From an uncultured Mycoplasma sp. (GTDB taxonomy: Bacteria; Bacillota_I; Bacilli_A; RF39; UBA660): a stretch of 64,000 nt of DNA. The notes under the pieces are model-generated. The model saw only the letters and a program-made list of their open reading frames with translations, searched no databases and was not told the origin of the DNA. Below are positions 3,074 through 59,413 of this stretch, piece after piece. Each line of letters starts with the position of its first letter. The stretch's first letter is position 1. The stretch is from assembly GCA_947646115.1 (NCBI GenBank), contig CANSFH010000002.1, positions 27,806 to 91,805 on the forward strand, in the 5' to 3' direction. The translations under genes were made by a program, and so were the position numbers.

Positions 3074-3194
3074 AAATATAATATGTACATTAATACATAT
3101 TTTTTTAATGATAAATTTATAAGAAATCTTAAAAATTAAGTTCTTGACTAGATAATGAACATATAATATAATAAAAATATCTTAAATGTTGAAG

Positions 3195-3385
3195 GAATGA
3201 GTACATATAATTTATTTTAAAGAAAGTTCGTGGTAGATGCAAACGAATAATAAATAATATGGAAGATGACTCTGGAGTTTAAACGGCAACTCTCCGTTAT
3301 CGAGTTTGAGAGCATGAAAAAAATCATGAATTAAGGTGGTACCGCGGAATATAATTCGTCCTTAATTTATGGTTTTTATTTGTTT
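3195..3385 (+). promoter_or_regulatory. T-box riboswitch leader, probably Met-specific, with promoter TTGACT-N17-TATAAT at 3144..3172
   Basis: Conserved T-box sequence AATTAAGGTGGTACCGCGG at 3334..3352. A competing terminator (aattaagg...ccttaatt plus T-run) lies just before the RBS of the HAD-metG operon. Confidence 0.75.
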
Positions 3386-3400
3386 TAAAGGAGAATATTT

Positions 3401-4021
3401 ATGAAAAAAATAAAAAGAATAATCTTCGATTTAGATGATACCCTAATTCCATGGAAAAAAGAATATAGTGCAGGCTTTAAAAAAGCACTTAAAGATTTTA
3501 ATTTAGATTATGATAATACTGATGCCGATTTAGTTGCGTACTATGAATCGATTTACCCTAATTATAATTATGAAGCTTTATTAAAAACTTTTAATGAATT
3601 TACTGGTCTAAATGCCTCTATAGATTTTATCCAAACTTGGCAAAATTATTTAGGTGAAATGGCTGAACCAGATAATGAAATAATTGAAGTTTTAGAATAT
3701 TTAAGCAAGAAATATGATTTAGTAGTATTAACTAACTGGTTTAGAGATTCCCAAGCGAAAAGATTAGCTAAAGCGCGAATGCGTGACTATTTTAGTGCCG
3801 TGTATGGCGCTGATAATTATAAAAAGCCATCAATAGAAAGTTTTAAAGAGGCAATTGGCGATTTAGAACCTAGCGAATGTATAATGATAGGTGACAATTA
3901 TAAAGAAGATATAGAAGGCGCATTAAATTGTGGACTTAAAGCTATTTATTTAACTAATAGGGAAGGAGAATTTGCAGCTCCAACTATTAAAAGCTTAAAA
4001 GAATTAAAAGAAATTTTATAA
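3401..4021 (+). CDS. HAD-superfamily hydrolase
   Basis: Motif I IIFDLDDTL (DxDxT). It is the first gene of the T-box-controlled operon. Confidence 0.75.
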   Translation: MKKIKRIIFDLDDTLIPWKKEYSAGFKKALKDFNLDYDNTDADLVAYYESIYPNYNYEALLKTFNEFTGLNASIDFIQTWQNYLGEMAEPDNEIIEVLEYLSKKYDLVVLTNWFRDSQAKRLAKARMRDYFSAVYGADNYKKPSIESFKEAIGDLEPSECIMIGDNYKEDIEGALNCGLKAIYLTNREGEFAAPTIKSLKELKEIL

Positions 4022-4042: not shown

Positions 4043-5572
4043 ATGAATAAAAAATATTATGTATCTACTCCAATATATTATCCAAGTGCAGAATTTCATA
4101 TTGGTCATTGCTATACAACAATTATAGCTGATGCTCTAGCGAGATATAAAAGATTAACTGGTTATGATGTATACTATCAAACAGGAACAGATGAACATGG
4201 AGAGAAAATTGAAAAGAAAGCTGCATCCGCAGGTGTAACTCCAAAAGAATACGTTGATAAAATAATAGAAGACGCTAAAGATTTATGGCAATCTTTAAAT
4301 ATATCATATGATTTCTTTATGCGTACAACAGACGATTACCATGAAGCTTCTGTTCAAAAAATATTTAAAAAATTATATGAACAAGGAGATATTTATAAAG
4401 GCTCATATGAAGGACTATATTGTATCCCATGTGAATCCTTTTGGACAGAAACTCAAGCCGTGGACGGAAAATGTCCAGATTGTGGGCGAGAAGTTAAAAC
4501 AGTAAGTGAAGAAGCCTATTTCTTCAAACTATCTAAATATCAAGATCGTTTAGTTAAATTTTATAATGAACACCCAGATTTTATATTACCACTATCACGT
4601 AAAAATGAAATGCTAAATAACTTCATTAATCCAGGGCTAGAAGATTTATGTGTATCTCGTACTAGTTTTAAATGGGGAATACCAGTTGATTTTGACCCAG
4701 ACCACGTCGTTTATGTTTGGGTAGATGCTTTATCAAACTATATAACTACTTTAGGTTATCCCGATGAAAATAACGAACTATTTACAAAATACTGGCCAGC
4801 AGACCTTCACATTGTAGGTAAAGAAATTGTTAGATTCCATACTATTATTTGGCCTTGTTTATTAATGGCTCTTGATTTACCATTGCCACACCAAGTGTTT
4901 GGACATGGATGGTTAAAAATAGATGGTGGTAAAATCTCTAAAAGTTTAGGAAACTATAAAGACCCACGTGTATATATTAATGCTTATGGCGTTGATGCAG
5001 TAAGATATTATGCTCTTCGCGAAGTTCCCTTTGGACATGATGGTAATTTTTCTGAAGAAGCTCTAATATCTCGTACTAATGCTGATTTAGTAAATACTTT
5101 AGGCAATCTTGTTAACAGAACTATTAGTATGTCCCATAAATATTTTGATGGCATAGTTACTAATCCAAAAGTTGAAGAAGAGCTTGATAAAGATTTAATA
5201 ACTAATATTTTAGCTTTAAAAGATATCGTTGAAGAAAAAATGAACGAATTAAAAGTTAATGAAGCAATTGAAGAAATCATGGATGTATTAAGAAAGTGTA
5301 ATAAATACATTGATGACACAACACCATGGACTTTAGCTAAAGATGAAACAAAAAAAGAGCGCTTACAAACAATTCTATATAATCTTTTAGAAAGTATCCG
5401 TATTTGTACAATTCTTTTAACTCCATTTATTCCTGGAACTTGTGACAAAATATTAGCTAATTTAAATACTAAAGAAACATCTTATGATTCTATAAAAACA
5501 TTTGGTTTATTAGAAGAAGGTCTTAAACTAAATAATCCAGAAATCATATATAGTCGTATTGAAACTAAATAA
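4043..5572 (+). CDS. metG: Methionine--tRNA ligase, short form
   Basis: HIGH (HIGHCYT) and KMSKS (KISKS) motifs plus a CPDCG zinc knuckle. 509 aa, with no C-terminal tRNA-binding extension. Confidence 0.95.
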   Translation: MNKKYYVSTPIYYPSAEFHIGHCYTTIIADALARYKRLTGYDVYYQTGTDEHGEKIEKKAASAGVTPKEYVDKIIEDAKDLWQSLNISYDFFMRTTDDYHEASVQKIFKKLYEQGDIYKGSYEGLYCIPCESFWTETQAVDGKCPDCGREVKTVSEEAYFFKLSKYQDRLVKFYNEHPDFILPLSRKNEMLNNFINPGLEDLCVSRTSFKWGIPVDFDPDHVVYVWVDALSNYITTLGYPDENNELFTKYWPADLHIVGKEIVRFHTIIWPCLLMALDLPLPHQVFGHGWLKIDGGKISKSLGNYKDPRVYINAYGVDAVRYYALREVPFGHDGNFSEEALISRTNADLVNTLGNLVNRTISMSHKYFDGIVTNPKVEEELDKDLITNILALKDIVEEKMNELKVNEAIEEIMDVLRKCNKYIDDTTPWTLAKDETKKERLQTILYNLLESIRICTILLTPFIPGTCDKILANLNTKETSYDSIKTFGLLEEGLKLNNPEIIYSRIETK

Positions 5573-9229: not shown

Positions 9230-9454
9230 TGTATATCACCTAAAATAATATAGAGTTTAAAACAATTTTTTTATTCAAGAATTTTAATTAAACTAATATT
9301 TATTATAAAAACATTGACAATAACTAAGCTTTTAAGATATAGTATATTTGGTAAATTATTAAATTAATAGCACCAAAAAAAATATAAATCATAAAAAATA
9401 GTATAAGTGCCTAACTTATACTAAAATTTTTCTTAGGAGTAAGGGTGTGTTAAA

Positions 9455-10708
9455 ATGAAACAAATGATAATTGAAGGAAATAATATTCTTTCTGGAGATA
9501 TTCATATTGGCGGAGCTAAAAATAGTGCGGTAGCACTTATACCAGCTTCTATTATGGCTTATGGGGCCTCAACGATTAAAAATGTTCCAAATATTTCTGA
9601 TCGTGATGCCTTAATTGATATTTTAAAATTATTAAATTGTGATATAAAATTAACTAAAGATGAACTAATTATAGATACAACAGATTTAAAAAATGTAAAC
9701 ATTGATTGTAGCTATTCTAGCAAACTTAGAGCATCTTATTATTTTATGGGAGCTCTTTTAGGCCGTGATAAATATGTTGAAATATGTTTGCCTGGCGGCT
9801 GTAACATTGGTACAAGACCTATAGATATTCATATTGATGGTTTTAAGGCATTAGGAGCCAAAGTAACAATAAAAGATAATAAATATATTTTAGAAGCAGA
9901 CAAATTAATTGGTACTGATATTAATCTTCGCTTTAAAAGTGTTGGAGCAACTATTAATATAATGCTTGCAAGTGTTCTAGCAGAAGGAGTAACTACCATT
10001 CACAATGCCGCAGAAGAAATAGAAATAATTAATATTGCAGAATTTTTAAATGCTATGGGAGCTAAAATAACAGGAGCGGGAACAGCAACTATTACGATAA
10101 CAGGAGTGGAATCTTTATATGGCGCTGAAATTTCGGTATTACCAGACCGTATAGAAGCAGGAACGTATATTATTCTTGGAGCTCTTTGTGGTCAAGAGTT
10201 GTGTATAAAAGATATTAATCCTCATCATTTAGAATCTTTAATTAACACTTTAAAAAACATAGGTGTTGATATCAAAGTTAATTCTAATAATATTCTAATA
10301 AATAAAACAGAAAATCTCCGACCAGTTAATATAAAAACTGAAGTATATCCTGGTTTTCCGACCGATATAGGCCAACCTATGAGCGTATTATTAACTCAAA
10401 TATCAGGATCTTCAGAATTTGAAGAAACTATATGGGAAAATAGAATGGGGCATATTCCATCTTTAACGAAAATGGGCGCAAATATCAAAGTAAATAAAAA
10501 TAAAGCAACCATTATTGGTCCTACCGCATTAAAAGGAGCAGAAGTTCTAGCTACAGATTTAAGAGGGGGAGCATCCCTAGTTTTAGCAGGATTAATTGCG
10601 GATGGAACAACCATTATAACTGATGTTGAACATATTTTAAGAGGATACGAAAATATTGTTTTAAAGCTTAAAAATGTAGGTGCTAAAATAGAAATAAGAG
10701 AAATATAG
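9455..10708 (+). CDS. murA: UDP-N-acetylglucosamine 1-carboxyvinyltransferase
   Basis: 417 aa with the typical MurA N-terminus (GGAKNSAVALIPA) and a CNIG active-site cysteine region. Lying next to rpmE resembles B. subtilis murAB. Confidence 0.95.
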   Translation: MKQMIIEGNNILSGDIHIGGAKNSAVALIPASIMAYGASTIKNVPNISDRDALIDILKLLNCDIKLTKDELIIDTTDLKNVNIDCSYSSKLRASYYFMGALLGRDKYVEICLPGGCNIGTRPIDIHIDGFKALGAKVTIKDNKYILEADKLIGTDINLRFKSVGATINIMLASVLAEGVTTIHNAAEEIEIINIAEFLNAMGAKITGAGTATITITGVESLYGAEISVLPDRIEAGTYIILGALCGQELCIKDINPHHLESLINTLKNIGVDIKVNSNNILINKTENLRPVNIKTEVYPGFPTDIGQPMSVLLTQISGSSEFEETIWENRMGHIPSLTKMGANIKVNKNKATIIGPTALKGAEVLATDLRGGASLVLAGLIADGTTIITDVEHILRGYENIVLKLKNVGAKIEIREI

Positions 10709-10743
10709 TTTAATAAAGCTATATTTTTTTTGAGGTGAAATTT

Positions 10744-14822: not shown

Positions 14823-15405
14823 ATAATTATATTTCGAAATGGCACATTATTCTAGTCAATACATATTACGAAGACGAATGTAAAAGATCGTTACAGAGCA
14901 CATCTATGAAACTTCTGGTGCTTGCTTCTTGCGCCCAGCTTGGGGTGAGTGCTGGAAATGAAGATTTCTTGGGCGACCATAATGGCATATGGCAAACGCC
15001 CCAGGTTATCGCGGAGACCTAACTTTGTGGAATAAATAATTCTACGAACTAGGCTTGAACCTACTTGTGGCGAAAGTTATGAGTAGTGTAGCTTGGCTTG
15101 AGTGGGAAACGGGGATAAATGACAGCTAAATCTGGCGTGTACATGTTACAGATTTAGTATTGCTTTTTGAAACGTTTACTGCAAAAGAGCATAAGTAATG
15201 GGGGTATTGTCGAGGAAAACTCCTAGAGTGCATATTAGAGTAAGATTGCAGTGTGTACTAAGTGGCAATCAGGTAATAAGATAGGTAACTACTTATTTAT
15301 TCCTTTAAATGGGAACGGCCTACGTGGTAACATTTAGGTAGGGATAAGGGAAATCCAACCTGACCTTAAGTCGCAAAGTTTATTATTTTAATAGCCATTT
15401 CAAAA
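14823..15405 (+). ncRNA. Large structured non-coding RNA, candidate OLE-like
   Basis: About 580 nt with no ORF in any frame and roughly 45% GC against a roughly 27% background. Perfect local stems are visible (cttgggg/ccccagg near 14935..14995 and agctaaatctg/cagatttagt near 15120..15160). It has its own promoter and is followed by a 4-TM membrane protein gene. Confidence 0.5.
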
Positions 15406-15421
15406 TTAAATAGGTAATAAT

Positions 15422-16012
15422 ATGAAAGATAAAAAGAATAAAGAAAAATATAATAAAAAAGCAAGCAAACAAAATAAGAATGTAAATATGAAAGCAGATT
15501 ATAAATGGATAGTGACAATAACACTGACAGCTTTTATAATCACTTTTGTTATGAGTTCATTTTCTGAAATTGCTCTAAAAGATATAAGTTTAATTTTTGG
15601 TATCTTAATAGTAGTAATTTTTATAGCTTTAGGAATAATTTTTGATATGATTGGTGTTTCTGTAACTGTCGCTGATAAAAAAGTATTTCACTCTATGGCT
15701 GCCAAAAAAGTAAGTGGCGCACGAGTAGCTTTAAAACTTATTGAAAACAATTCTAAAGTTTCCAGTTTTTGTAATGATGTTATTGGCGATATATGTGGTA
15801 TTCTATCTGGTACTGCCGCATCTACCATTGCTATATTATTAGCTAACGAATTAAAAATAAACTTATTTTTAGTCACATTAATTATTACTAGTTTAATCGC
15901 TGCCTTTACAATTGGAGGTAAAGCTTTAGGTAAAAGCATAGCAATAAATCATTCTAATAATATTTTATATAAGTTTGCTAAAGTTTTAAAAATATTTAGT
16001 AAGGAAAAATAA
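15422..16012 (+). CDS. Small 4-TM membrane protein, possibly OapA-like
   Basis: 196 aa (about 21 kDa) with a lysine-rich N-terminus and four hydrophobic helices. It lies immediately after the ncRNA candidate with no intervening terminator. Confidence 0.5.
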   Translation: MKDKKNKEKYNKKASKQNKNVNMKADYKWIVTITLTAFIITFVMSSFSEIALKDISLIFGILIVVIFIALGIIFDMIGVSVTVADKKVFHSMAAKKVSGARVALKLIENNSKVSSFCNDVIGDICGILSGTAASTIAILLANELKINLFLVTLIITSLIAAFTIGGKALGKSIAINHSNNILYKFAKVLKIFSKEK

Positions 16013-31014: not shown

Positions 31015-31929
31015 ATGGAAAGTATAAGCATGTTAGAAAGATATGGCGAAGATTTAACCGCAAAAAATTATATTACTGACCCAGCAATAGGTCGTGATGA
31101 CGAAATAAAACAAATGATTTTAGCTCTTCTTACCCCTGAAAAAAGTGCATTATTAGTAGGCAAACCAGGTATTGGTAAAACTGCAATTGTAGAAGGACTT
31201 GCTTATCGTATTATCCAAGGTTATGTACCAGATGTATTATTAAATTATCAAATTATAAAAATAAATATAACTAGCCTTATTGGAAATACTATAATAAGTG
31301 GTGAAACAGAGAATAGAGTTGATTTATTAGTTCGTGAACTTAATACTAAAGATAATGTCATAGTATTTATTGATGAAACTCATCTTTTAATAAACAAAGA
31401 TGGTGGTATGGATTTTGCTAATATGCTAAAGGCAGGATTAGACCGTGGTACCATAAAAATGATAGGTGCAACTACTACTGATGAATATGAACAATATATT
31501 TTAAGAGATAGAGCATTTTTAAGACGTTTTCAAAAAATTGAAGTTGCTGAAAGTGATAAAGAAACAACTGTCGCAATCCTTATGGGAACTCTTCCCAAAA
31601 TAGAAGATAAAATTGGTGTAAAATGTGAGTATACAAATTTCATTAAAGAACGTATTATGCGATTTATTGTTGATATGACAGATGAATATAAAAGAGTATA
31701 CGAAATAGCCTCACGTTATCCCGATATATGTTTAACAATTGTATCTAATGCATATACTTTTGCATTATATGACAATAATCGTACTGTAACCATAAAACAT
31801 TTTTATAAAGCAATATGTAACGCTAAAAATATTTATGATGATGCTAGATTAAAAGAAATAGAAAGATTTAAAATAGAATTTGCTGATATTTTAAGAGAGG
31901 AAGGTGTTGATTTAGATGAACGGAACTAA
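31015..31929 (+). CDS. Clp/Hsp100-like AAA+ ATPase, single module
   Basis: Walker [22 protein letters not shown] typical of ClpA/B D1 domains. Only about 300 aa. Confidence 0.55.
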
Positions 31930-33005: not shown

Positions 33006-34865
33006 TTATATTTTAAGTTTAGTTTTTACAATTCTTTCTAAATGTTTTTGCAAAGCTTCATCACAAGCATATACATAACAACCCTTAATTCCTCTTGTAA
33101 GCAACACTCTATATGTATTTCTAATAATTTTATCAGCAAGCTTTTCATAATAAGACTTGTCTTTTTTCATTAAAACATATAATCCATACAATGACTTTTC
33201 TGTACTAGCTCGAGCTTTATAATCAGTTATTACTTTACCATTTCGATACTTTAAATCTGGTCCTATTATAACACCGATATAATCAAATTCTAACCCTTGA
33301 ACATTATGAACACATCCAACTTCATTTATAGCACTTATTCTTGTTGCAAACTGCTCCCCGTGTTTCAAATTCCAACTCATTTCAAAGTCATCAATTTTAA
33401 TATCTTTATATTGTTGATTATCAGCTTCTTTGGCATTTCTTGACCAACAAAAACCCGCTACTAACCTAGCATTATTAATAGTGTTTTTCTCTATTATTTC
33501 ATCTCTTAAATCTGTAGGAGTATCCATAACTTTAAAATCAAAATTAAAATTAACACTTCCTCTTTTATTATAAAGAATCTTATCTACGAAATCTAAATAA
33601 GAATCACTTCCATTACATCTAAATTGACTAGTAAGTTCTAGTTCCATAACATCAGCATTAAAGTATTTAGCAAAGTATTTGATATTTAAAATAGTTCCAA
33701 TATCTTTTAAAGTAATAATCTGTTTTTCATCAATAAAGAAAACCGATAATTTACTAGCATTCATAATTTCTTTAATCTGATTTTCGCCTATATTATTCCG
33801 CATGCCAGATTTTTCTGATAATCTATGAGATTCATCAACTAATAAAAAATCATATTTATTTGGATAATCCCTAAAGAAGTAACCCGAACTTTTAAATAAT
33901 TCATTTATACTGACTTCGTTCTTTCCATTTATTAATTTATTTTTATAAACTTTTCTGGGCGCCATATTTTTAGAAACATAAGCCCCCATTAAGCCTCTAG
34001 AAAGTAATTCGCCTAAAGCATTAATAGCTAAAATAGATTTACCACTCCCTGGCCCACCTTTAATTATCAAAACATTCTTTTTATTTTCAATATATGAAGC
34101 ATTTGCCTTGGATATAATTTCTTCCATAATTACTTTTTGTTCATCAAGCATAACAAACTCTTTACTTCCTTCTAGTATTCTATTAAGATGTTTAAGTAAT
34201 TTATTAGTCGGTTTAATATCGCTTTGATCAACTAGTTTTATAACTTCTAAATTATCACCATGTCTAATATTAGAATTAATTAAATCTTTTAAATAATCTT
34301 TATCATTCTTGCCAAACATTAAAACCTTTTTATAATAGGGACTATATTTTTTACTATATAAATCATCACTTAAGCTTAAATCATAATTGTGTAAATAAAC
34401 CAGAGGTACAACTTTTATCTTATAATCTTGAATGTTAATATTATAATTATTTAAAAGTTCAGCATAGCTTCCTACCTGATAAGCTGGGTGTAGCGAGTTT
34501 TTTTCTTTATCACCAATTAATGTTTTAATAACGCCATCTAAATTTTTTACTTCTTTAGCATATTCCCACTGTTTTAATTCGACTAATATAATCGTAGGTC
34601 TCATTTCCTCATTATAACCACTAATAATAAAATCTACTCTTTTACTTGTAAGTGGTATTCCATATTCAATTGTAATGCCAGCATTATCTGGTAATTCTTC
34701 TATAATGTCTTTCATAAAAGGTAAACTATTAGCCCAAGCTTTAATTTGATTTAGTTTGGTCTTTTTATTAAATTTTTCTTTATATGCGTCATATACTTTA
34801 TTACTTATAATATCTCTTTTGACATAATCTATAAACTCTTTTTTTAAACACGAAAAAACCATCAC
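33006..34865 (-). CDS. PD-(D/E)xK nuclease fused to a DUF2075-type SF1 helicase/ATPase (Schlafen-like or Nhi-like), a candidate defence protein
   Basis: N-terminal RVDFIISGY...ILVELKQW is a D...ELK restriction-endonuclease fold. Walker A GGPGSGKS. A long helicase-like C-terminal region follows. Confidence 0.65.
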   Translation of the reverse strand: MMVFSCLKKEFIDYVKRDIISNKVYDAYKEKFNKKTKLNQIKAWANSLPFMKDIIEELPDNAGITIEYGIPLTSKRVDFIISGYNEEMRPTIILVELKQWEYAKEVKNLDGVIKTLIGDKEKNSLHPAYQVGSYAELLNNYNINIQDYKIKVVPLVYLHNYDLSLSDDLYSKKYSPYYKKVLMFGKNDKDYLKDLINSNIRHGDNLEVIKLVDQSDIKPTNKLLKHLNRILEGSKEFVMLDEQKVIMEEIISKANASYIENKKNVLIIKGGPGSGKSILAINALGELLSRGLMGAYVSKNMAPRKVYKNKLINGKNEVSINELFKSSGYFFRDYPNKYDFLLVDESHRLSEKSGMRNNIGENQIKEIMNASKLSVFFIDEKQIITLKDIGTILNIKYFAKYFNADVMELELTSQFRCNGSDSYLDFVDKILYNKRGSVNFNFDFKVMDTPTDLRDEIIEKNTINNARLVAGFCWSRNAKEADNQQYKDIKIDDFEMSWNLKHGEQFATRISAINEVGCVHNVQGLEFDYIGVIIGPDLKYRNGKVITDYKARASTEKSLYGLYVLMKKDKSYYEKLADKIIRNTYRVLLTRGIKGCYVYACDEALQKHLERIVKTKLKI

Positions 34866-34941: not shown

Positions 34942-36393
34942 TTACTTAAAGCTGATATCAAAATTACTAGGTCCTTCAATACATTTACCATCTATATCAA
35001 ATCTTGAACCGTGGCATAAACAATCCCAAGTTTTTTCAATTTCATTGAACAATATGCCACACTTCATATGTGGACATTTATTATATACAATATGTTCTAA
35101 CCCATTTTCATCAGTATATATAGCAACACTCTTACCATGAATTTTTTTGTAGATAACTCTACAGTTATTAACATTATCTTTTGTGCTTTTTAGAATAGCT
35201 TTAACACTTGCTCCTATATCAATTGGCATTCTAATAACTTTACTTAAATTAATATTTCTATTTGGAGATAATAATTCTTCATAAGGATTATGTCTTTTCA
35301 TGATTATATCAGTAATAATCGTACCAGCTAAAGTTCCGTTAGTAATGCCCCAAGTATTAAAGCCTGTTGCCATAAGCATAGTATTTTCATCTTTATGGAT
35401 CCTTCCAATATAAGGCAAGTAATCATTAGTTATAATATCTTTATTACTCCAAATATACTCAAATTCCTTCTTTTTCTTTAAATCTAAAAAATTATTTTTA
35501 ATACTTTTAATATTAGCAGACACATAAGAATTAAATAAGTATATTAAATAATTGTTAGTTTTATTAGAATGATACCTAAAAGATATACAAGGCTTATCAA
35601 TGTTAATAGCACTAACTGAATAAAAATCTTTTTCCTCTTTTGCTCAAATATAAGAAGTTTCAATATGACTCTTTAGAGGCATCAAATAAGGAAACAAAAA
35701 GTAAGGATAATGGGTAGCAAAGACTACATATTTTGCTTTTATTTTATAGCCATTAACTAAAGCAATATAATTATCACTGGTTTTATCTATACTTTCTAAT
35801 TTAGAATTCTCATAAATGCTATCTTTAAATTTATTCTTTAAAAAATTAATATATTTAAGAGGATGAAACACATAAGTATCACTTACCTTTAAAGCCAGCT
35901 TTACATCGTTCATAAAAGGAATATTTTTCACTAGTTGGGAATTTACTTTACATTGGTTTAAAAATTTATATTCTTCCTCTATCTTATCACGACTATTATC
36001 ATCATTTGTAAATATATATGAATCTACTTTCTTTAAATCACAATCAATTTTTTCTTTTTCTATTCTATTTTTAAGAGTATTTACTGCTTCAACTTGACTT
36101 TTCAAATATAATTCTGCTTCTTTAAATCCTACGTATTTTCTAATATTCATATAAACTTTTTCCTGCAAAAAAGTAATTTTGGCAGTACTTCTGCACGTTA
36201 CACCATGTCCACATATATTTCTCTCAACTAAAGTAGCATTTATTCCGCTGTTTTTTAATTGATAAAGTGTTGATATCCCTGTTATACCTCCGCCAATAAT
36301 TAAAACATCAGTTTCCATATCTACAGTAACCGATTTACAGTTTTTAACATCTATATTATCTAACCAAATACTATAATTTTTCATACACATCAT
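34942..36393 (-). pseudogene. Disrupted FAD-dependent oxidoreductase with C-terminal Rieske [2Fe-2S] domain (YhfW-like), split into two ORFs
   Basis: ORF 35644..36393 holds the FAD-binding N-terminus (VLIIGGGITG). ORF 34942..35523 holds the rest of the DAO domain and the Rieske motifs CPHMKCG...CLCHGS. The two are separated by 120 nt containing stop codons. Confidence 0.5.
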
Positions 36394-36490: not shown

Positions 36491-36567
36491 TGGCGGAATT
36501 GGTGAAGGGGTTAACACGGCAGATTGTGGCTCTGTTATGCATGGGTTCGAATCCCATATTTCGCCCC
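36491..36567 (+). tRNA. tRNA-His (anticodon GTG)
   Basis: G-1:C73 pair, acceptor GCGGAAT/ATTTCGC, anticodon loop TTGTGGC, T-arm GGGTTCGAATCCC, CCA encoded. It is near-identical in layout to B. subtilis tRNA-His. Confidence 0.85.
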
Positions 36568-36668
36568 ATATTGAATTTTACGCACAACTTTGTGCGAAAG
36601 TTAAAGTAAAAGTTCGTAATACTTGATATTATGGACTTTTTTCTTTGCAAAGGTGGTGAGTATATAAA

Positions 36669-38306: not shown

Positions 38307-39008
38307 TTGATAGATAATAAAATTATAGACCTAATTTCAAGTCAGTTTAATCATAATATAGATTATAAGGCCTATCAAATTATAGATAGACAAAAAATAT
38401 TAACTGATGACACAAAGAATACATATAACATATTAAAAGCAAGATTAATAAAAGAATTATTAAAACAGGTTGATGAAAAAGTATATTCTTGTAAATCTTG
38501 TAATAAATTAGTAGATAAATTCCCTAATGATGCAACAGTATTTCTTGGAAAAGATAATGATATCGTATTAGTTGGAGAAGCTCCTGCTAATAATGGTTTG
38601 AGAAAGAGTCATAAATTATGGTGTGATATAAATGATAAAGTATTACCTAGTGGAGTTGTATTACAAAAACTATTTGATATAATTGATAGAAATATCTTTG
38701 AAACAACATTTTTAGAATCAGTTAAATGTTATCCACTTGAAAGAAAAGATTTAAAAACTTGTTCTAATAATTGTAAGAACATAATGTTAGAACAATTAAG
38801 AATATTAAATCCTAAATTGATTATTACTTTAGGAGAATTTCCAACTAGAAATTTACTTGATTTTAAATTTAAAACATTTTCTGATGTCGTTGGTAACATA
38901 TATGAAGTAAATGGTTATAAAATATTACCTATTTATCATCCTAGCCCAATATCTCCGAAGAGTTATAAAGGTAATATTCCAATCATTAAAAAAATGAGAG
39001 AAATGTAG
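38307..39008 (+). CDS. Uracil-DNA glycosylase superfamily protein (family 4-like, Fe-S type)
   Basis: Motif A VLVGEAPANNG (GEAPG-like), motif B IYHPSPISP (HPSP), and four Cys (CKSC...C...C). TTG start. Confidence 0.5.
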   Translation: MIDNKIIDLISSQFNHNIDYKAYQIIDRQKILTDDTKNTYNILKARLIKELLKQVDEKVYSCKSCNKLVDKFPNDATVFLGKDNDIVLVGEAPANNGLRKSHKLWCDINDKVLPSGVVLQKLFDIIDRNIFETTFLESVKCYPLERKDLKTCSNNCKNIMLEQLRILNPKLIITLGEFPTRNLLDFKFKTFSDVVGNIYEVNGYKILPIYHPSPISPKSYKGNIPIIKKMREM

Positions 39009-41182: not shown

Positions 41183-41557
41183 ATGTGTAAAATTTTGATT
41201 TCAATAAAGCCTGAATATGTAAATGAAATTTTATCTGGTAGAAAAAAATATGAATATAGAAAAGTCAAAGCAAAAAAAGATAATGTAGACAAAATGATCA
41301 TATATGCCACAGCTCCTATTATGAAAGTAGTAGCAGAAATAGAAATTTTAAAAATTCTAGAAGATACTCCAGATTTAATATGGGAAAATACAAAAGAGTA
41401 TTCAGGTATTAATAAATCTTTCTATGATAAATATTATGAAAATCGAAATATTGCGATTGCATATCAATTAGGAAAAATTGAAAAATATAATAAACCAAAG
41501 GAGTTAAGCGATTTGGGTATTTCATATAGTCCTCAATCATTCATTTATATTGATTAA
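41183..41557 (+). CDS. ASCH-domain (PUA-like) protein
   Basis: ILISIKPEYVNEILSGRKKYEYRK is a typical ASCH N-terminus. 124 aa. Confidence 0.6.
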   Translation: MCKILISIKPEYVNEILSGRKKYEYRKVKAKKDNVDKMIIYATAPIMKVVAEIEILKILEDTPDLIWENTKEYSGINKSFYDKYYENRNIAIAYQLGKIEKYNKPKELSDLGISYSPQSFIYID

Positions 41558-42797: not shown

Positions 42798-42862
42798 AGT
42801 ATTCAAATGAATATTTTATTTTTATAATTTTTTACTTATGTTATAATAAAATTGTGATTTAT

Positions 42863-43324
42863 ATGAACGAAAGATTTAAATTAAAAGTAGCAGTTATTCT
42901 AATACTTAGCAAAATAGAAAATAATGAAGAATATATATTACTTCAAAAAAGACAAAATACAGGTATATTAGATGGTTTTTACGATTGTTCATGTTGCGGT
43001 CATTTAGAAGAAGGCGAAACTCTAAAGGAAGGAATCATAAGAGAATCAAAAGAAGAACTAGGAATCGAAATAGAACCTCAGGACTTAGAGTTTAGTTCCC
43101 TTATGCACGCAACTTTTAAAGATGGTGGAGAATATTTACTTGTTACATTTAGTGCTAAAAAATTTATAGGAACAGCTAAGATTATGGAACCAAATAAATG
43201 TAGTGAATTAAAATGGTTTAACATCAATCAATTACCAGAAGAAGTCGCGGATACCAGAAGAATAGCTATTGAGTCCTATAAAAATAAAAATTATTATAAT
43301 GAATTTGGTTTTAAAAATAAGTAG
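42863..43324 (+). CDS. NUDIX hydrolase
   Basis: Nudix box GHLEEGETLKEGIIRESKEELGI. Confidence 0.8.
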   Translation: MNERFKLKVAVILILSKIENNEEYILLQKRQNTGILDGFYDCSCCGHLEEGETLKEGIIRESKEELGIEIEPQDLEFSSLMHATFKDGGEYLLVTFSAKKFIGTAKIMEPNKCSELKWFNINQLPEEVADTRRIAIESYKNKNYYNEFGFKNK

Positions 43325-44043: not shown

Positions 44044-44478
44044 ATGAATACTATTATAGTAGGTGGTATAATCGAAAAAAAAGGAAAATACTTACTTGTC
44101 CAAGAAGCTCAAAAAAAGTGCTTTGGTAAATGGAATATTCCAGCTGGACATTTAGATCCTAATGAAACAATTTTTGAAGGAGCAAAAAGGGAAGTGTTTG
44201 AGGAAACAGGATGCAATGTAGAACTAGCAGGAATCCTTCAAATAGCAAATAAAGTATCTCCATCTGATACTTGGATAAGTGTAATTTTTGCTACTAAATT
44301 AATAGAAGAAAATATAGCTTTTGATAAAAAAGAAATACTAGATGTCAAATGGTTCACTTATGAAGAACTACTAAATATGAAAAATGAATTGCGTGCATAC
44401 GATTGGATTATAGATAGTATAAAAGCTTTAAGAGAAAATAAAATCCTAGATATAAATCGGGTTATAGTTATAAAATAA
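44044..44478 (+). CDS. NUDIX hydrolase
   Basis: Nudix box GHLDPNETIFEGAKREVFEETG. Confidence 0.8.
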   Translation: MNTIIVGGIIEKKGKYLLVQEAQKKCFGKWNIPAGHLDPNETIFEGAKREVFEETGCNVELAGILQIANKVSPSDTWISVIFATKLIEENIAFDKKEILDVKWFTYEELLNMKNELRAYDWIIDSIKALRENKILDINRVIVIK

Positions 44479-44498: not shown

Positions 44499-45383
44499 TT
44501 ATATAAAAAAATCATTAATATTTTCACAACCTGCGATAACTTCTCTCCCTACTGAGATCAAGTTATCTTTTTTTAGTTTAAATGACCATTTTACTAATGC
44601 TATTTTTCCATTTTCAATCTCAATACAAGTTATACCATTAGGATGAATTGCTGAACCATCATTAAAATAATAGCTTTCGCCTATCAATGGATATATTGGC
44701 TTATGCGTATGTCCTGCAATAACAATTTTTTTGTTTTCTTTACTCCATTTTTCTAGCTTTTTATCAGTAGATTTTGTACCTTTATAATTTTTTGCCGCAC
44801 TTGTCGGATCTTTTAAGCCAAATCTTTCTAAAGGTCGCCAAACATTTCTTACCAAGAATCTTGCTAATCGCCAAAGAGTACTATTAAGTAAATCCACTTG
44901 ATGACCATGTAGTAAAAATATATCATTATCATTATAATTTAAAACAACACTTTCATATACTTGTAAATTATTTAATAAATCATTTTCCTTTTTAGTATAT
45001 ATATCCTTATAACTATAAAAAGTATTTTCTAAAATCGCTTTATTTTTTTTACACATATCATGATTACCATATATCATTATTAATCTTTTTTCTTCATTGA
45101 ATTTTCTCAATAATTTAAAAGTACTTAAATGTCCTGTAATAATCTCTCTATAATTTTTTACTTCCCACATATCATCGCCATCACCAAGTTCTATATATTT
45201 AAAACCTTGAGTATAATATGTTTTTAAAGCTGCTTCATATATATTCTCATTATGAACAAAATTGTCATAAGAATCTCCTGATCCTCTATGTATATCACTC
45301 ATTATAACTATCTTACTTTCGTCATTAATATTTATTTTATTAGCATTAAGAAAAACTTTATCTAATTTTTTATATCTTTTCAT
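44499..45383 (-). CDS. Calcineurin-like metallophosphoesterase
   Basis: Motifs IMSDIHRG, GDGDD (ELGDGDDMW), GNHD (IYGNHDM) and GHTH (IAGHTHKP). Confidence 0.75.
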   Translation of the reverse strand: MKRYKKLDKVFLNANKININDESKIVIMSDIHRGSGDSYDNFVHNENIYEAALKTYYTQGFKYIELGDGDDMWEVKNYREIITGHLSTFKLLRKFNEEKRLIMIYGNHDMCKKNKAILENTFYSYKDIYTKKENDLLNNLQVYESVVLNYNDNDIFLLHGHQVDLLNSTLWRLARFLVRNVWRPLERFGLKDPTSAAKNYKGTKSTDKKLEKWSKENKKIVIAGHTHKPIYPLIGESYYFNDGSAIHPNGITCIEIENGKIALVKWSFKLKKDNLISVGREVIAGCENINDFFI

Positions 45384-54364: not shown

Positions 54365-56539
54365 ATGAAAGAGATATTTAATAAATTATACAAAATCTTA
54401 ATTATAGTCATGTTATTTATATGGGGAATTATAACTTTTTCTAGTTGTTTTCATGTTTATGAAAGATTTTATAATCCTATTGCTATTTTTTTTGGTGGGT
54501 TTATTATTTTGCTAATTATCTATAATGTTTATCAATTAATAAAGAAAATAAATCCCAAATATCATGACAAAATTGCATTAGGTATGTTTCTTACAAGTTT
54601 AGTTATCATGCTATTATGGGGTCTTAATAATGAAATAATTCCAGCGTATGATTTATCTCATATAATCGCAAAAAGTGATTTACTCCTAAAAAATAACCAT
54701 CATTTTGGTCAGGAAATATATTTCTCAATTTATCCTACACAAATTCCCATAACTATATTTATATATGGAATTAAAGCAGTAGGAACTTTCTTTAACATAA
54801 CTAATCTAAATGCCTTTGTAATCATTTATAATGCTATAATGACTTCTCTAATGTTCTTATTTATATATAAAATTGTTAAGAAATTATCTAATAGTAATTT
54901 AGCTCTAATTGTTATGTTTATTACAATGTTATACCCTGACTTTTACTTATATATTCCATATTATTATACGGATATCATGGCTTTACCTTTTGGAATAATT
55001 GGTTTTTATTTATTACTGGCAGGTGATACCAAAGAAAATAAAAAAAGTTATATTTACTATTTGCTTGCTGGTATCCTTTTTGGAATAGGCTTTAAACTCC
55101 GTGTAACAACTATTATTATTCTTATTGCTTATATTATTTGTTTATTAAGAAATACTAAATTAAAATTAATTTTAAAAAAGCTTTTATTTATTTTTATAGG
55201 AATTATTTTAATCTTATTTACTTATTCTAAAGTTATATATCCATTCTTTAATATTGAAATAGATGAATCAGTTAAAGTACCACCTCTACATTGGGTAATG
55301 ATGGGAACTAATCCGGAAACTAATGGAGGATATGATGACGCTGCTATTAATTATTCTATAAATAGTCAAGATAAAAATAATGACATAAAAAAAGTTATTA
55401 AAGAGCGCATACCTAAATTAAATCCCAAATTTTATTATAATAAGCTACGTAAAGTTTGGTCAGAAGGAGACCATGATATTCAAAGAAAATATGCTCTAAC
55501 AAAATCTATGTCTGAAGTAAGAAACTATATTAGTGGTCCAATGTGTGGTATTTTAAGATACTATACTCAAATGTTAAAATTTGCAATTTATACATTATTT
55601 TTGATAAGTATAGCTAATCAACTTAAAAAGAAAAATACTTTTCAAGATAGTAAAATAGCGCCTATTATTATAAGTGTATTTGGTGGTATTCTCTTCTATT
55701 TATTATGGGAAGCATTAAGTCGTTATAGTTTTTCTTTTCTACCTCTTATAATAATTGGTACATATGCAGGAATTGATATATTTGTAAATAACTTTAATCC
55801 CAATATTTTTACTTTAAAAAATAAAACCTATAATATTAAAAAAGGCAAAAAAATCATTGGCATAATAATGATTATTGCTCTAATAGCAGGTCTTATAATT
55901 GGCACTAAATATGTAGCTAACGATAAACAAGTATTTGAATTAGAACGTAATTTACAAAAATATTCTTCAAGAACTTTTGAGCCTCTATATCACAAAACTT
56001 TAAAAGAAGTATTTAGAGTATCAAAACCATTTAACCGAATTCAATTAAGAGTATTAACTGATAATATAACTGAAAGTATAGAATATACCTATGAAATATA
56101 TAAATCTAATAATGAACTTATTTATAAAAGTACTTATGGCTTTGACCCTCAAAATGAACATATTATGCGTAAAATAACTTTATATGTTCCGACTGTAAAT
56201 GTCACAAAAGAAGAAGAATTCTATGTATTATTTTATTCTAATGAAGCGACTAAAAATAACCATATTAAATTAAATACTTATAAGTTTCAAGATAAAGTAA
56301 AAAATGACCCTGAATTTAGTCCAGAAGTTTTAGGTCCCGATTTTGATTTAAATCCTAATAGTGAAACCTATTTTAATAACAAATTATATACTGGAAATTT
56401 ATTTATCCGTGTTTTTGAAAAAGTAAAAAGACCATTTATTAAAAAAGAAAATTATATAATTATATCTCTGATAGCTGTTTTCTTTATTGGTAGTAATATT
56501 TACTTTAGCTTGATAAAAAAGGAACAAAAAAATGAATGA
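54365..56539 (+). CDS. Polytopic membrane protein with C-terminal soluble domain, putative GT-C-fold glycosyltransferase (ArnT/PMT/YfhO-like)
   Basis: 724 aa with more than 10 TM helices in the first 500 residues and a roughly 200-aa extracytoplasmic tail. The family assignment rests on topology only. Confidence 0.4.
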   Translation: MKEIFNKLYKILIIVMLFIWGIITFSSCFHVYERFYNPIAIFFGGFIILLIIYNVYQLIKKINPKYHDKIALGMFLTSLVIMLLWGLNNEIIPAYDLSHIIAKSDLLLKNNHHFGQEIYFSIYPTQIPITIFIYGIKAVGTFFNITNLNAFVIIYNAIMTSLMFLFIYKIVKKLSNSNLALIVMFITMLYPDFYLYIPYYYTDIMALPFGIIGFYLLLAGDTKENKKSYIYYLLAGILFGIGFKLRVTTIIILIAYIICLLRNTKLKLILKKLLFIFIGIILILFTYSKVIYPFFNIEIDESVKVPPLHWVMMGTNPETNGGYDDAAINYSINSQDKNNDIKKVIKERIPKLNPKFYYNKLRKVWSEGDHDIQRKYALTKSMSEVRNYISGPMCGILRYYTQMLKFAIYTLFLISIANQLKKKNTFQDSKIAPIIISVFGGILFYLLWEALSRYSFSFLPLIIIGTYAGIDIFVNNFNPNIFTLKNKTYNIKKGKKIIGIIMIIALIAGLIIGTKYVANDKQVFELERNLQKYSSRTFEPLYHKTLKEVFRVSKPFNRIQLRVLTDNITESIEYTYEIYKSNNELIYKSTYGFDPQNEHIMRKITLYVPTVNVTKEEEFYVLFYSNEATKNNHIKLNTYKFQDKVKNDPEFSPEVLGPDFDLNPNSETYFNNKLYTGNLFIRVFEKVKRPFIKKENYIIISLIAVFFIGSNIYFSLIKKEQKNE

Positions 56540-57083
56540 AAGAATAACCATAATCTCATTATTTAATGTTAAAGATTTAAAAAAAATTAATAATGTTTTA
56601 AGTTCTATAAATATTTCTCTATGTAAAGTACCTTTTGGTAAAAATATAATTAATAGAAAAGATGTTGATACCTTACCTTGGCATTTTACTTTATCAGCTG
56701 GAGACATCACTAAAGAAAATCTTGCCAAGGAAAGTTTAAAAAATATCAAATTTAATGAATTTGTCATCAGCATTAATAAATTAGAAGTTTTGCCTGGTAA
56801 AGAAAATAGTTATGTTTTGGTTTTTAACATTATACCTAATAAAGAGCTAACATTGCTTCATAAAAAGATTTATGAAATACTACCCACAAATAAGTACAAT
56901 CCTGATAATTTTATATTTCATATTACTATTCATATAAGTAAAGATTATGAAGAAATAATGAATCTAAAAAAAGAAATAGAAAGAAATTTCCAGCCATTTA
57001 AACTAGTAATTGATAAAATTGGTCTATTTCGTATATATCCAGCATCATTAGTAAGTGAGTATTCAAGTATAAAAAAAGTTTAA
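56532..57083 (+). CDS. 2H phosphoesterase superfamily protein (LigT / 2'-5' RNA ligase-like)
   Basis: Two H-x-T-x motifs (WHFTLS and FHITIH). It overlaps the end of the upstream gene. Confidence 0.6.
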   Translation: MNERITIISLFNVKDLKKINNVLSSINISLCKVPFGKNIINRKDVDTLPWHFTLSAGDITKENLAKESLKNIKFNEFVISINKLEVLPGKENSYVLVFNIIPNKELTLLHKKIYEILPTNKYNPDNFIFHITIHISKDYEEIMNLKKEIERNFQPFKLVIDKIGLFRIYPASLVSEYSSIKKV

Positions 57084-57114
57084 AACCTCAAACTAAAAAT
57101 AAGAGGTTTTTTAT

Positions 57115-58506
57115 ATGGATAAATTAAGCAAATACAAATCAAAAAGAGACTTTACTAAAACTAGTGAACCTAAAGGCCAAGTTTCTAAAAATTCTAAAAA
57201 ATTACGTTTTTGTGTCCAACATCATGCTGCTCGTCGTGATCACTATGACTTTCGTTTAGAGTATAATGGAGTATTAGTTAGTTTTGCTATTCCCAAAGGA
57301 CCTAGCTATAACCCTAAAGATAAACGTTTAGCTGTTCATGTTGAAGACCATCCTTTAAGTTATCGTAATTTTGAAGGTACTATACCTAAAGGCGAATATG
57401 GTGGAGGTACAGTAATGTTATGGGATTATGGCTACTGGGAACCTCATAAAAATATGAAGGTTGATTTTAAAAAAGGACCTGTCAAATTTATTTTAAAAGG
57501 AAAAAGATTAATAGGAGAGTGGACACTAGCAAACCTATCTGATAATAATTGGCTATTAATAAAAGATCGAGATAATTTAAAAACTTTTGATAATATAAAT
57601 GATTTTGATACTAGTATTAAAACTGGAAGAACTATGACTGAAATATCCCGTAATATTAAAATTCTTAAAAAAGAAAATGATGAAATGATAATTGAAGGCA
57701 TAACCATAACTAATCCTAATAAAATTATTTACAAAAATCCTAAAGTAACAAAACTAGATATAGTTTTATATTATCAAGCTGTTGCAAAACACATGTTACC
57801 ATATTTAGAAAATAGACCAATCAGTGTAATTAGAGCGCCATCAGGAACTAGTGGAACCAAATTTTTTAAAAAACATTTAGAAAATAATAATGGCCTTGGT
57901 AAAGTTAAAATAAAAGACTTTGCTAACGAAAAAGATGATTACTACTACATTAAAAATATTGAAGGATTAATAAACGAAGTTCAAATGAATAGTTATGAAT
58001 TTCACATCTGGGGTAGCAAAGTGCCACGGCTAAAACATCCCGATATTTTAGTTTTTGATTTAGACCCCGACGAAAGTGTGAAATTAAAAAAAGTTCGTGA
58101 AGGTGTAAGAGATTTAAAAAGCATATTAGATGAATTAAACCTAGATTCTTATCTAAAAACAAGTGGTGGCAAAGGATATCATATAGTAGTTCCAATTGCT
58201 AACATCACTTTAAAAGAATATAAAGACATAGCTATGAATATTGCTAAATTAATGGAAGCTAAATGGCCTAATAAATATACAAGTAACATAAAAAAAGCAT
58301 CACGTAAAGGTAAAATATTCATTGACTATTTACGAAATTCGTTTGGTGCTACAAGTGTCGCTCCTTATTCATTACGTTTAAGAAAAAAAGCTACCATATC
58401 ACTTCCTATAGCTTGGAGTGATTTAGATAAAGTAAAACCCGATAGTTTTACCATTCGAGACTTAAATGATATATTAAAAAAGCCAAATCCCTGGCCAAAA
58501 TTTTAA
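57115..58506 (+). CDS. LigD-type 3'-phosphoesterase (PE) domain fused to an NHEJ primase-polymerase (Pol) domain, with no ligase domain
   Basis: PE motif LRFCVQHHAARRDHYDFRLE. Pol-domain motifs ILVFDLDPDE and KTSGGKGYHIVVPI. At 463 aa it is too short to carry a LIG domain. Confidence 0.7.
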   Translation: MDKLSKYKSKRDFTKTSEPKGQVSKNSKKLRFCVQHHAARRDHYDFRLEYNGVLVSFAIPKGPSYNPKDKRLAVHVEDHPLSYRNFEGTIPKGEYGGGTVMLWDYGYWEPHKNMKVDFKKGPVKFILKGKRLIGEWTLANLSDNNWLLIKDRDNLKTFDNINDFDTSIKTGRTMTEISRNIKILKKENDEMIIEGITITNPNKIIYKNPKVTKLDIVLYYQAVAKHMLPYLENRPISVIRAPSGTSGTKFFKKHLENNNGLGKVKIKDFANEKDDYYYIKNIEGLINEVQMNSYEFHIWGSKVPRLKHPDILVFDLDPDESVKLKKVREGVRDLKSILDELNLDSYLKTSGGKGYHIVVPIANITLKEYKDIAMNIAKLMEAKWPNKYTSNIKKASRKGKIFIDYLRNSFGATSVAPYSLRLRKKATISLPIAWSDLDKVKPDSFTIRDLNDILKKPNPWPKF

Positions 58507-58654: not shown

Positions 58655-59413
58655 CTAGCATAAATCTCTAAATATCTTAAAAATAGAATTTAAACCATTA
58701 AAACAAATATTTTTATAAAGGAAAGAGCATTCTCTCAAATAAATGTCTTGCACTAAATCATCCACATCATTTTTAACTTGATTGCGAATATCATTACTAA
58801 ATTTAGTAGTCTCGCGATAAATAATTTTTTTAATAGTTTTTAATCTTTTTTGAGGAATGTAATTTAATACTTCATTCACACCATTCCTATATAAAACAAA
58901 AAGATAAATAAAATCAGTATTTTCATCATAATTTTTATTTTGATATAAATTAATAAATTTTTTAACTTGATTATTACTAATTGCTAGTTTACCTTTTTTG
59001 TTTACTTTATCTTTTAAAAACCACACTATATTAAAAGCTTCTTTTTTTGAAAAACCTTTTTTGTATAATTTATTTAATGAAGCAAATTCTACATTTAAAA
59101 CTTCTGAAATTTCCGCAAATCTATATGTATTAGTTTTTTCCATCCATTTTATAAAATTAATAATTCTTTTTTTATTTTTAATATTTAAATGTTTTTTAAT
59201 AACTAAATTAATTATTTTGTTTAATTCCATATCTTCGTATTTTTTTCGATAATATCTTATTGAACTTAACACATTTTCATAATCTAACATTTCTTGTTTA
59301 CAATAACTATAAACTTTATAATTTTGATAAAAGTATTTTACCTCTCTATCAACTTTATTCTTTTCTTTTACTCCATTCATTTTTATCTCTCTTTTACTAC
59401 TTTTTTGTTTCAA
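58655..59413 (-). CDS. Hypothetical protein, possibly frameshifted at its 3' end
   Basis: 252-aa K/N-rich ORF. A further coding-like segment (...NDVNKKLRENCVSLDAEDNTGRCGYDYLTKYNNWY) continues in another frame over 58507..58650. Confidence 0.35.
   Translation of the reverse strand: MKQKSSKREIKMNGVKEKNKVDREVKYFYQNYKVYSYCKQEMLDYENVLSSIRYYRKKYEDMELNKIINLVIKKHLNIKNKKRIINFIKWMEKTNTYRFAEISEVLNVEFASLNKLYKKGFSKKEAFNIVWFLKDKVNKKGKLAISNNQVKKFINLYQNKNYDENTDFIYLFVLYRNGVNEVLNYIPQKRLKTIKKIIYRETTKFSNDIRNQVKNDVDDLVQDIYLRECSFLYKNICFNGLNSIFKIFRDLC

Follow-up and report, generated by a model that had tools for sequence, protein, structure and literature searches.

A LigD-type phosphoesterase-polymerase gene without ku or ligase nearby in an uncultured gut bacterium of the RF39 lineage

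The genes at the locus

A stretch of 64,000 nucleotides (hereafter the window) from the genome of an uncultured Mycoplasma sp. of the RF39 lineage (contig CANSFH010000002.1, positions 27,806 to 91,805) was analysed for a gene, referred to here as PE-Pol (57115-58506, + strand), which encodes a 463-aa protein combining the 3'-phosphoesterase (PE) and the primase-polymerase (POL) of the end-joining protein LigD in one chain without a ligase domain. PE-Pol is preceded on the same strand by a gene for a YjcG/LigT-like 2H phosphoesterase of 183 aa (2H; 56532-57083) and this in turn by a gene for a membrane glycosyltransferase of the PMT_2 family (54365-56539, + strand, 724 aa; Pfam PMT_2, 1.2e-10), the stop of which overlaps the start of 2H by 8 nt (ATGAATGA). 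The spacer between 2H and PE-Pol is 31 nt long (57084-57114, + strand) and carries an AAGAGG Shine-Dalgarno sequence 7 nt before the ATG, which is overlapped by a weak 6-bp hairpin, AACCTC(N13)GAGGTT, and no terminator was reported in the spacer by the terminator scan. The short gap, the shared strand, the good Shine-Dalgarno sequence and the lack of a terminator make co-transcription likely, so that 2H and PE-Pol are probably transcribed together.

The PE domain occupies residues 4-153 of PE-Pol (57124-57573, + strand) and the POL domain, an archaeo-eukaryotic Prim-Pol, residues 196-456 (57700-58482, + strand). Both belong to the respective LigD families, the LigD PE family and the LigD primase-polymerase (archaeo-eukaryotic primase, AEP) family, as the Pfam models LigD_N (PF13298; residues 35-138, 7.6e-42, 142.3 bits against a cutoff of 31.1) and LigD_Prim-Pol (PF21686; residues 212-456, 6.5e-81, 272 bits against 27.4) and the NCBIfam models TIGR02777 (residues 4-153, 211.1 bits against 144) and TIGR02778 (residues 196-438, 276 bits against 214.7) all score above their cutoffs. 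The motifs HHAARRDHYDFRLE, VFDLDPDE and SGGKGYHIVVP are found in the open reading frame (ORF). The Pfam search of PE-Pol returned no match to DNA_ligase_A_M or DNA_ligase_A_C, and the models of full-length LigD remain far below their cutoffs (TIGR02776, 290.6 against 373.2; NF004628, 540 against 895; NF007210, 339 against 989) because the ligase (LIG) part is absent. The nearest solved relatives in a sequence search of the PDB are the POL domain (2fao, 4.8e-47) and the PE domain (2lj6, 6.3e-44) of Pseudomonas aeruginosa LigD.

In an alignment of 19 family members (A1), the POL residues D315-x-D317, SGGKGYH (350-356) and D404 are invariant, of which we take D315, D317 and D404 to be metal ligands by analogy with LigD POL. 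The catalytic set of the PE domain (H37, H43, D45, R47, H79 and Y83) is invariant in the same alignment, and its spacing is identical to that of His36/His42/Asp44/Arg46/His78/Tyr82 in MbaPE (PMC3082917). In the LigD PE family, Mn2+ and the scissile phosphate are contacted by six residues of the active site (His, His, Asp, Arg, His, Tyr), and PE-Pol has the corresponding side chains. The identical 463-aa protein was observed on contigs of five samples. When compared with two sister species (82% and 78% identity in PE-Pol), the ratio of nonsynonymous to synonymous substitution rates (dN/dS) was 0.11-0.15 for PE-Pol, 0.16-0.21 for the PMT_2 gene, 0.07-0.10 for cysS and 0.30-0.53 for 2H, which by this measure evolves 2-4 times faster than PE-Pol. 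PE-Pol is thus clearly maintained by purifying selection with its catalytic residues intact.

The 2H protein is a member of the 2H phosphoesterase superfamily, with the two HxT motifs (H51-F-T and H130-I-T) and the two-lobed alpha/beta fold of that superfamily. It scores above the cutoffs of Pfam LigT_PEase (38.6 bits, cutoff 23.3) and 2_5_RNA_ligase2 (36.4 bits, cutoff 27), and at 47.7 bits it stays below the 65.7-bit cutoff of the ThpR/LigT equivalog TIGR02258, outside which it therefore falls. Across 33-38 homologs neither of the motifs, HFT (51-53) and HIT (130-132), varies. An AlphaFold (AF2) model built on 38 homologs has a predicted local distance difference test score (pLDDT) of 92.4, and Foldseek matches it with probability 1.0 to Bacillus subtilis YjcG (2d4g; template modelling (TM) scores 0.69/0.74), to the Arabidopsis cyclic phosphodiesterase CPDase (1jh6) and to Escherichia coli LigT (5ldm); by the same comparison the fold is also that of cyclic-nucleotide and cGAMP phosphodiesterases. 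A single-sequence search of the PDB with 2H gave no match, and a profile search gave a weak match to YjcG (2d4g, E = 0.024) together with a match to the designed repeat 'Tako8', which was discarded as spurious. PADLOC returned no defence-system match for either 2H or PE-Pol, and a defence function of 2H or of the Prim-Pol was rejected on this account.

A sequence-only reading of the window had described a 2H gene with HFTL and HITI motifs directly before a 463-aa protein with LigD-type PE and Pol domains. Both ORFs are present where that reading placed them, Pfam and the predicted fold agree on the first, and the profiles confirm the two domains of the second, with LigD_N, LigD_Prim-Pol and 2_5_RNA_ligase2 all scoring above cutoff.

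The PE-Pol family and its ku-lig neighbourhoods

A total of 7985 homologs of PE-Pol were found at E<=1e-10. The best 120 of these consist of PE and POL only and are 452-497 aa long, nearly all of them 452-479 aa; judged from these sequences, the two-domain form is the norm of the family and not a truncation. The neighbourhoods of 80 PE-Pol loci were then compared, with one genome scanned per species, and all of the hosts are uncultured gut metagenome-assembled genomes of the labels 'Bacilli / Tenericutes / Mycoplasma sp. CAG:776 / Ca. Caccenecus / Ca. Onthocola'.

When the ORFs around PE-Pol were clustered without bias, two clusters emerged just upstream of it in 17 of the 80 loci, and in 15 of these they share its strand. 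The first cluster is Ku (PF02735, 8.7e-42; TIGR02772, 246.7 bits against a cutoff of 150). The second is a stand-alone ATP-dependent ligase (lig) of about 295 aa with DNA_ligase_A_M and DNA_ligase_A_C domains, for which the LigD LIG domain model TIGR02779 is the best NCBIfam model, with a score below the cutoff of that model. In these 17 species ku and lig lie within about 5 kb of PE-Pol, either upstream on the same strand or divergent from it, and in 11 loci PE-Pol is located immediately 3' of lig in the order ku-lig-PE-Pol. The same order was found in three Ku loci that were fetched independently. As ku and lig are the neighbours of PE-Pol in these relatives, the family is the PE and POL module of a split LigD, that is, of NHEJ (non-homologous end joining). 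Loci with ku and lig adjacent are dispersed over the PE-Pol tree and include the nearest tree neighbours of the window (L061 and L069), which fits an ancestral operon that was broken up repeatedly.

The arrangement was also examined from the side of Ku. In a Ku-centred scan of metagenomes lig follows ku in every case, and PE-Pol was found nearby in 10 of 15 Ku lineages; 26 well-flanked ku-lig loci belonging to 5 lineages are without PE-Pol within 10 kb. One of the types with ku-lig only (the L100 type) is syntenic with the PE-Pol-adjacent locus L039 on one side only, which places a breakpoint between ku and PE-Pol. This one-sided match was the sole link in our search for shared flanks joining loci with ku-lig only to loci with PE-Pol only or to the window.

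Sharda et al. 2020 (PMC7719229) described the category of 'non-conventional NHEJ', in which the LigD domains reside in different proteins and Ku is present. The PE-Pol family belongs to it, and models of Pfam and NCBI already cover the family. No description of a PE-POL fusion as a widespread family of gut Bacilli with a ku-lig-PE-Pol cluster was found in the literature searched, and a literature search on RF39 and NHEJ returned nothing.

Several other genes were observed in these neighbourhoods. In 23 of the 80 species, a DUF4130 protein and a radical-SAM/HhH protein, known as the 'putative DNA modification/repair radical SAM' pair, are encoded at most 10 kb from PE-Pol in varying orientation (loci from L006 to L085, e.g. 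L010:17356-18576 and L037:12263-13012), and they appear to belong to an ancestral neighbourhood that has been conserved and also includes groEL and the AAA-ATPase. A SWIM/SNF2-type helicase of about 1040 aa is situated just downstream of PE-Pol in 9-11 loci from 3 independent contexts (L007:11676-14822, L009:11676-14822, L023:4760-7888 and about 8 further loci), a stronger recurrence than that of 2H. In one abundant lineage (L087-L089, 7641-8528) lig and PE-Pol are separated by an insertion of two small ORFs and a gene for a DUF1848 protein. The lineage with ku-lig only that is most abundant in human-gut contigs is L100 (ku at 10001-10738). Two very large genes (1206 aa and more than 1036 aa) lie about 3 kb from its ku-lig; L100 and L039 share them at 82-88% identity, and their size suggests rpoB and rpoC.

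The vacant ku-lig slot in the window

Neither ku nor an ATP ligase was found among the ORFs of the window with hidden Markov models (HMMs) built from the Ku and ligase proteins of the relatives, and the six-frame translation of the 64-kb window gave no remnants of either (best matches below 10 bits, E >0.03). The Pfam annotation of about 47 of the window's larger ORFs, which is most of them, likewise contains no ligase of any kind. The sequence-only reading had found neither a ligase domain nor Ku in the window, and the HMM, six-frame and Pfam searches bear it out on both counts. The window is part of the origin-proximal core of the chromosome, with mnmE-mnmG-rsmG-parB present, and is not a mobile element.

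The place where ku and lig would be expected can be located by synteny. Ku-bearing relatives of the L087/L027 type have the order AAA-ATPase ... DAO/Rieske, ku, lig ... PE-Pol, and the series AAA ... DAO/Rieske ... PE-Pol ... secG-cysS is common to these relatives, to the window and to L177, a relative at 70% identity. The AAA-ATPase (31015-31929, + strand) serves as the upstream anchor; its orthologs in the relatives are 75-88% identical and are found at the corresponding place in L177 as well as in the Ku-bearing loci L027, L032, L035, L087, L150, L152 and L169. The DAO/Rieske oxidoreductase (34942-36393, - strand) is intact in L177, L087 and L027 (478-484 aa), and in L087 and L027 ku begins at its stop. 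In the window the gene is broken into two ORFs with about 120 nt between them (35644-36393 and 34942-35523), one of which matches DAO in Pfam and the other the DAO C-terminus and Rieske. Since it directly precedes ku-lig in the Ku-bearing relatives, it marks the vacant ancestral ku-lig slot in the window, and the split gene is possibly a pseudogene situated at the former, rearranged ku-lig site.

The window and L177 share the AAA-ATPase, DAP_DH, an SLFN-like helicase, DAO/Rieske, NUDIX and a Ser-hydrolase, followed by PE-Pol ... secG-cysS, and ku-lig is absent from the shared interval in both. From this synteny with L177 and with the L087/L027 type it follows that the ancestral interval (31.0 to 58.5 kb) lies entirely within the window and that the slot is empty. 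No ku-adjacent scar common to the window and any Ku-bearing locus was found beyond the AAA-ATPase and DAO/Rieske anchors.

A tRNA-His gene (36493-36568) is located next to the split DAO/Rieske gene. Directly after DAO/Rieske, in the position held by ku-lig in the relatives, lies a 619-aa helicase of Schlafen-group-3 type (33006-34865, - strand; PF09848, 3.6e-89), which also matches, more weakly, the defence models PDC-S41 and Nhi and is present in L177 too. The stretch between the AAA-ATPase anchor and PE-Pol also contains a uracil-DNA glycosylase (UDG) superfamily protein, two NUDIX hydrolases and a calcineurin-like phosphoesterase (38307-39008, 42854-43324, 44044-44478 and 44499-45383) as well as an ASCH protein (41183-41557), which together form a loose grouping of housekeeping genes for nucleotides and DNA. 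A 252-aa ORF (58655-59413, - strand) is convergent with PE-Pol and has counterparts at the same position in L173 (69% identity) and L177 (33%); no match to Pfam, NCBIfam or PADLOC was found for it.

The neighbourhoods of 2H

The block PMT_2-2H-PE-Pol is kept in relatives at 78-82% PE-Pol identity (L173 and L175). In L177 (70%) the PMT_2-2H pairing is absent and other genes lie upstream, with PE-Pol ... secG-cysS in place, so that the 2H/PE-Pol junction is a synteny breakpoint produced by rearrangement. Outside the genus of the window, 2H adjoins PE-Pol in only one species (L059). A 2H homolog was found within 10 kb of PE-Pol in three of the 80 other species and immediately upstream of it in this one; in the remaining two, L058 and L028, it lies 2.3-2.7 kb from PE-Pol on the opposite strand and in unrelated contexts. 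The sister of L059, L055, is syntenic with it on both sides and has no 2H. In L028 the 2H domain (residues 7-183) makes up the N-terminal half of an ORF of 378 aa (9352-10488, - strand), the uncharacterised C-terminal extension of which, about 190 aa, is rich in aromatic residues.

The four cases of 2H near PE-Pol have no other flanking genes in common, and they amount to two independent contexts, or three when L028 is counted. In a control over all neighbour families, the number of independent contexts was at least as high for an SNF2 helicase, an SDR and about a dozen further families, and the recurrence of 2H is therefore not above background; the significance suggested by a naive Poisson enrichment of 2H near PE-Pol was dropped after this control. 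From the opposite direction, PE-Pol, ku and lig are all missing within 5 kb of the four 2H homologs sampled on long contigs, the neighbours of which are unrelated. A conserved 2H-PE-Pol operon was thus rejected by the neighbourhood counts from both sides, and 2H appears to be a chance neighbour and not a dedicated partner of PE-Pol.

Other features of the window and its hosts

A full-length ornate large extremophilic (OLE) RNA was found at 14823-15414 (+ strand; Rfam RF01071, 381.9 bits, model positions 1-616). Directly 3' of it lies a gene for a 196-aa membrane protein with a CNNM/DUF21-type domain (15422-16012, + strand), which is probably an OLE-associated protein. The RNA is a notable find in a gut-associated genome of about 25% GC that apparently encodes sporulation genes. 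A T-box leader (3180-3366, + strand; RF00230, 111.9 bits) precedes the genes for a HAD hydrolase (3401-4021) and for methionyl-tRNA synthetase (4043-5572).

The sporulation-associated domains SpoIIR, SpoVT_C and BofA were observed in the lineage of the window (L183, 10 kb beyond the window start), and CotJB and a Mn-catalase (CotJC-like) are encoded near three of the four sampled 2H homologs (L180-L182). The hosts are probably endospore formers, and the endospore is the setting in which B. subtilis uses Ku and LigD.

Discussion

The reading that we prefer, and to which we give about an even chance, is that PE-Pol is one module of a three-gene NHEJ system, detached from the others yet functional, with the ligase and Ku encoded separately and 2H incidental. 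In the clade of gut Bacilli that carries PE-Pol, NHEJ consists of ku, a stand-alone LigD-type ATP ligase and the PE-Pol fusion. By homology with LigD, the PE domain would remove 3'-ribonucleotides and 3'-phosphates so that the broken DNA end is left with a 3'-OH, the Prim-Pol domain would fill or extend the end, and the separate ligase, together with Ku, would seal it. A rearrangement in the genus of the window would have detached PE-Pol from ku-lig, and 2H, as a YjcG/LigT-like phosphodiesterase, would have arrived with the glycosyltransferase block. A separately encoded ligase elsewhere in the genome, which the sequence-only reading had also considered, is plausible because the ligase of the relatives is a gene of its own and ku-lig operons without PE-Pol exist, and the presence of ku-lig elsewhere in this genome is slightly favoured over its absence.

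Four observations weigh against this preferred reading. No ku or lig was found in about 14 kb of additional flank (10 kb upstream, taken from a sister strain, and 4.5 kb downstream), which brings the search around the locus to about 78 kb of genome. Secondly, ku-lig is missing within 10 kb in 63 of the 80 PE-Pol loci, whereas PE-Pol is adjacent in 10 of the 15 Ku lineages, an imbalance larger than would be seen if all PE-Pol genomes had Ku, although the sampling is biased. Thirdly, a metagenome scan of the Joint Genome Institute (JGI) sample that holds the sister species at 82% identity gave no match to Ku. Finally, the same-strand gap of 31 nt without a terminator points to probable co-expression of PE-Pol with 2H, so that a functional link between the two is conceivable. 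Both arguments for loss, from the ratio and from the JGI sample, are weakened by biased sampling, as the Ku search patterns were derived from Ku genes adjacent to PE-Pol and the PE-Pol and Ku collections differ.

The strongest competing explanation, which we consider possible and on balance unlikely, is that ku and the ATP ligase were lost altogether in the lineage of the window and perhaps in most lineages with PE-Pol only. PE-Pol would then clean 3'-blocked or ribonucleotide-bearing ends and fill short gaps independently of Ku, with the housekeeping NAD+ ligase sealing the product, in analogy to excision repair by Prim-PolC and LigC or to the stand-alone PEs of Ku-less archaea. The ancestral ku-lig slot is vacant and the flanking DAO/Rieske gene is split, about 78 kb were covered without ku or lig, the sample with the sister species yields no Ku match, and purifying selection on PE-Pol persists, all of which speak for this explanation; so does the fact that PE-Pol is adjacent in 10 of 15 Ku lineages, with ku adjacent in only 21% of PE-Pol loci. 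However, the search for Ku and ligase is confined to those 78 kb, related gut bacteria do have ku-lig operons detached from PE-Pol, and the ratio is subject to the bias in Ku patterns and collections described above. A fuller version of this explanation, in which PE-Pol is a Ku-independent 3'-end repair enzyme of a spore-forming gut bacterium that has lost ku and the ATP ligase, sealing is left to the NAD+ ligase, and a possibly co-expressed 2H helps to heal breaks with 2',3'-cyclic phosphates or ribonucleotides, is in our estimate a little less probable still.

The sequence-only reading had regarded 2H and PE-Pol as an end-healing and end-filling pair. In such a stand-alone unit for RNA or DNA, 2H would open 2',3'-cyclic phosphate ends, PE would remove the phosphate or ribonucleotide and POL would fill in. 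The gene order invites this idea, with the two genes 31 nt apart on one strand behind a good Shine-Dalgarno sequence and no terminator between them, and so do the conservation of the arrangement in three species of the genus, the invariance of both 2H catalytic motifs, the independent juxtaposition of 2H and PE-Pol in L059 (lacking in its syntenic sister L055) and the 2H genes 2.3-2.7 kb from PE-Pol in the unrelated contexts of L058 and L028. The co-occurrence that a working pair would predict is nevertheless sparse, as 2H lies within 10 kb of just 3 of the 80 PE-Pol loci and PE-Pol near none of the four sampled 2H homologs, and a recurrence of this size is equalled by many unrelated families. 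In addition, the junction of the two genes is a synteny breakpoint, and 2H is coupled start to stop with the PMT_2 gene and not with PE-Pol, and evolves faster than the latter (dN/dS 0.30-0.53). Enzymes of the LigT/ThpR type leave a 2'-phosphate, which is not known to be a PE substrate, and our literature search linking 2H phosphoesterases with LigD returned nothing. We therefore regard a functional pair as improbable, and the earlier proposal finds no support in the neighbourhood counts, the breakpoint, the background control or the dN/dS values.

That PE-Pol is a decaying remnant of a ligD or NHEJ locus without a current function, as the empty ancestral slot and the disrupted DAO/Rieske gene beside it might suggest, is very improbable, as the ORF is full length and encodes the identical 463-aa protein in five samples, all catalytic residues are conserved, its dN/dS of 0.11-0.15 is similar to that of the neighbouring PMT_2 gene and the two-domain architecture is the family norm; the possibility of truncated debris, which the sequence-only reading had named as fatal to its proposal if joined with a complete ligD-ku operon elsewhere, was rejected on architecture, conservation and dN/dS, and is effectively refuted by the selection and conservation data.

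PE-Pol can be compared with several known systems. Bacterial LigD, with the domain order PE-LIG-POL in P. aeruginosa and POL-PE-LIG in Mycobacterium tuberculosis, has homologous PE and POL domains with the same catalytic residues, and its domains are the best PDB matches of PE-Pol (2lj6 and 3n9b for PE, 2fao for POL). As with LigD, the PE-Pol gene adjoins ku in the relatives; unlike LigD, PE-Pol has no LIG, its PE is fused directly to POL, and no ku or ligase is near it in the window. The distribution of the LigD activities over several genes is shared with non-conventional NHEJ (PMC7719229) and with Methanocella paludicola, which has separate Ku, Lig, Pol and PE proteins (PMC4797286). The relatives of the window cluster the corresponding genes ku, lig and PE-Pol. 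In Methanocella PE and POL are separate proteins, whereas the two are fused in PE-Pol and the module is detached from ku-lig in the genus of the window.

Precedents for LigD-type end processing outside Ku-dependent NHEJ, and thus for a PE-Pol acting without Ku, are provided by the archaeal proteins CkoPE and MbaPE, since the hosts of the archaeal stand-alone PEs are without Ku (PMC3082917), and by the mycobacterial LigC and Prim-PolC, which act in excision repair (PMC5663958). All of these are single-domain proteins, unlike the two-domain PE-Pol, and the window genome may have Ku outside the roughly 78 kb that were searched. The 2H protein shares its fold and the two HxT motifs with B. subtilis YjcG (TM 0.69/0.74) and with E. 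coli ThpR/LigT, from which it differs in an identity of just 9-18% and in a score of 47.7 bits, which falls short of the 65.7 bits set for the ThpR equivalog.

The 2H and PE-Pol 'pair' therefore appears not to be a system, and the interest of the locus lies in the PE-Pol family. In uncultured, low-GC and apparently spore-forming gut Bacilli, NHEJ is encoded in three genes, and often neither partner lies close to the PE-POL gene. Such genes are now named 'non-homologous end-joining DNA ligase' despite lacking a ligase domain, which affects surveys that score the presence of NHEJ from single genes. Should genomes with PE-Pol only prove to be without Ku, this would reveal a Ku-independent role for the end-processing domains of LigD, and if that held for most of the 63 of 80 species with PE-Pol only, the main role of the PE-Pol family would lie outside classical NHEJ.

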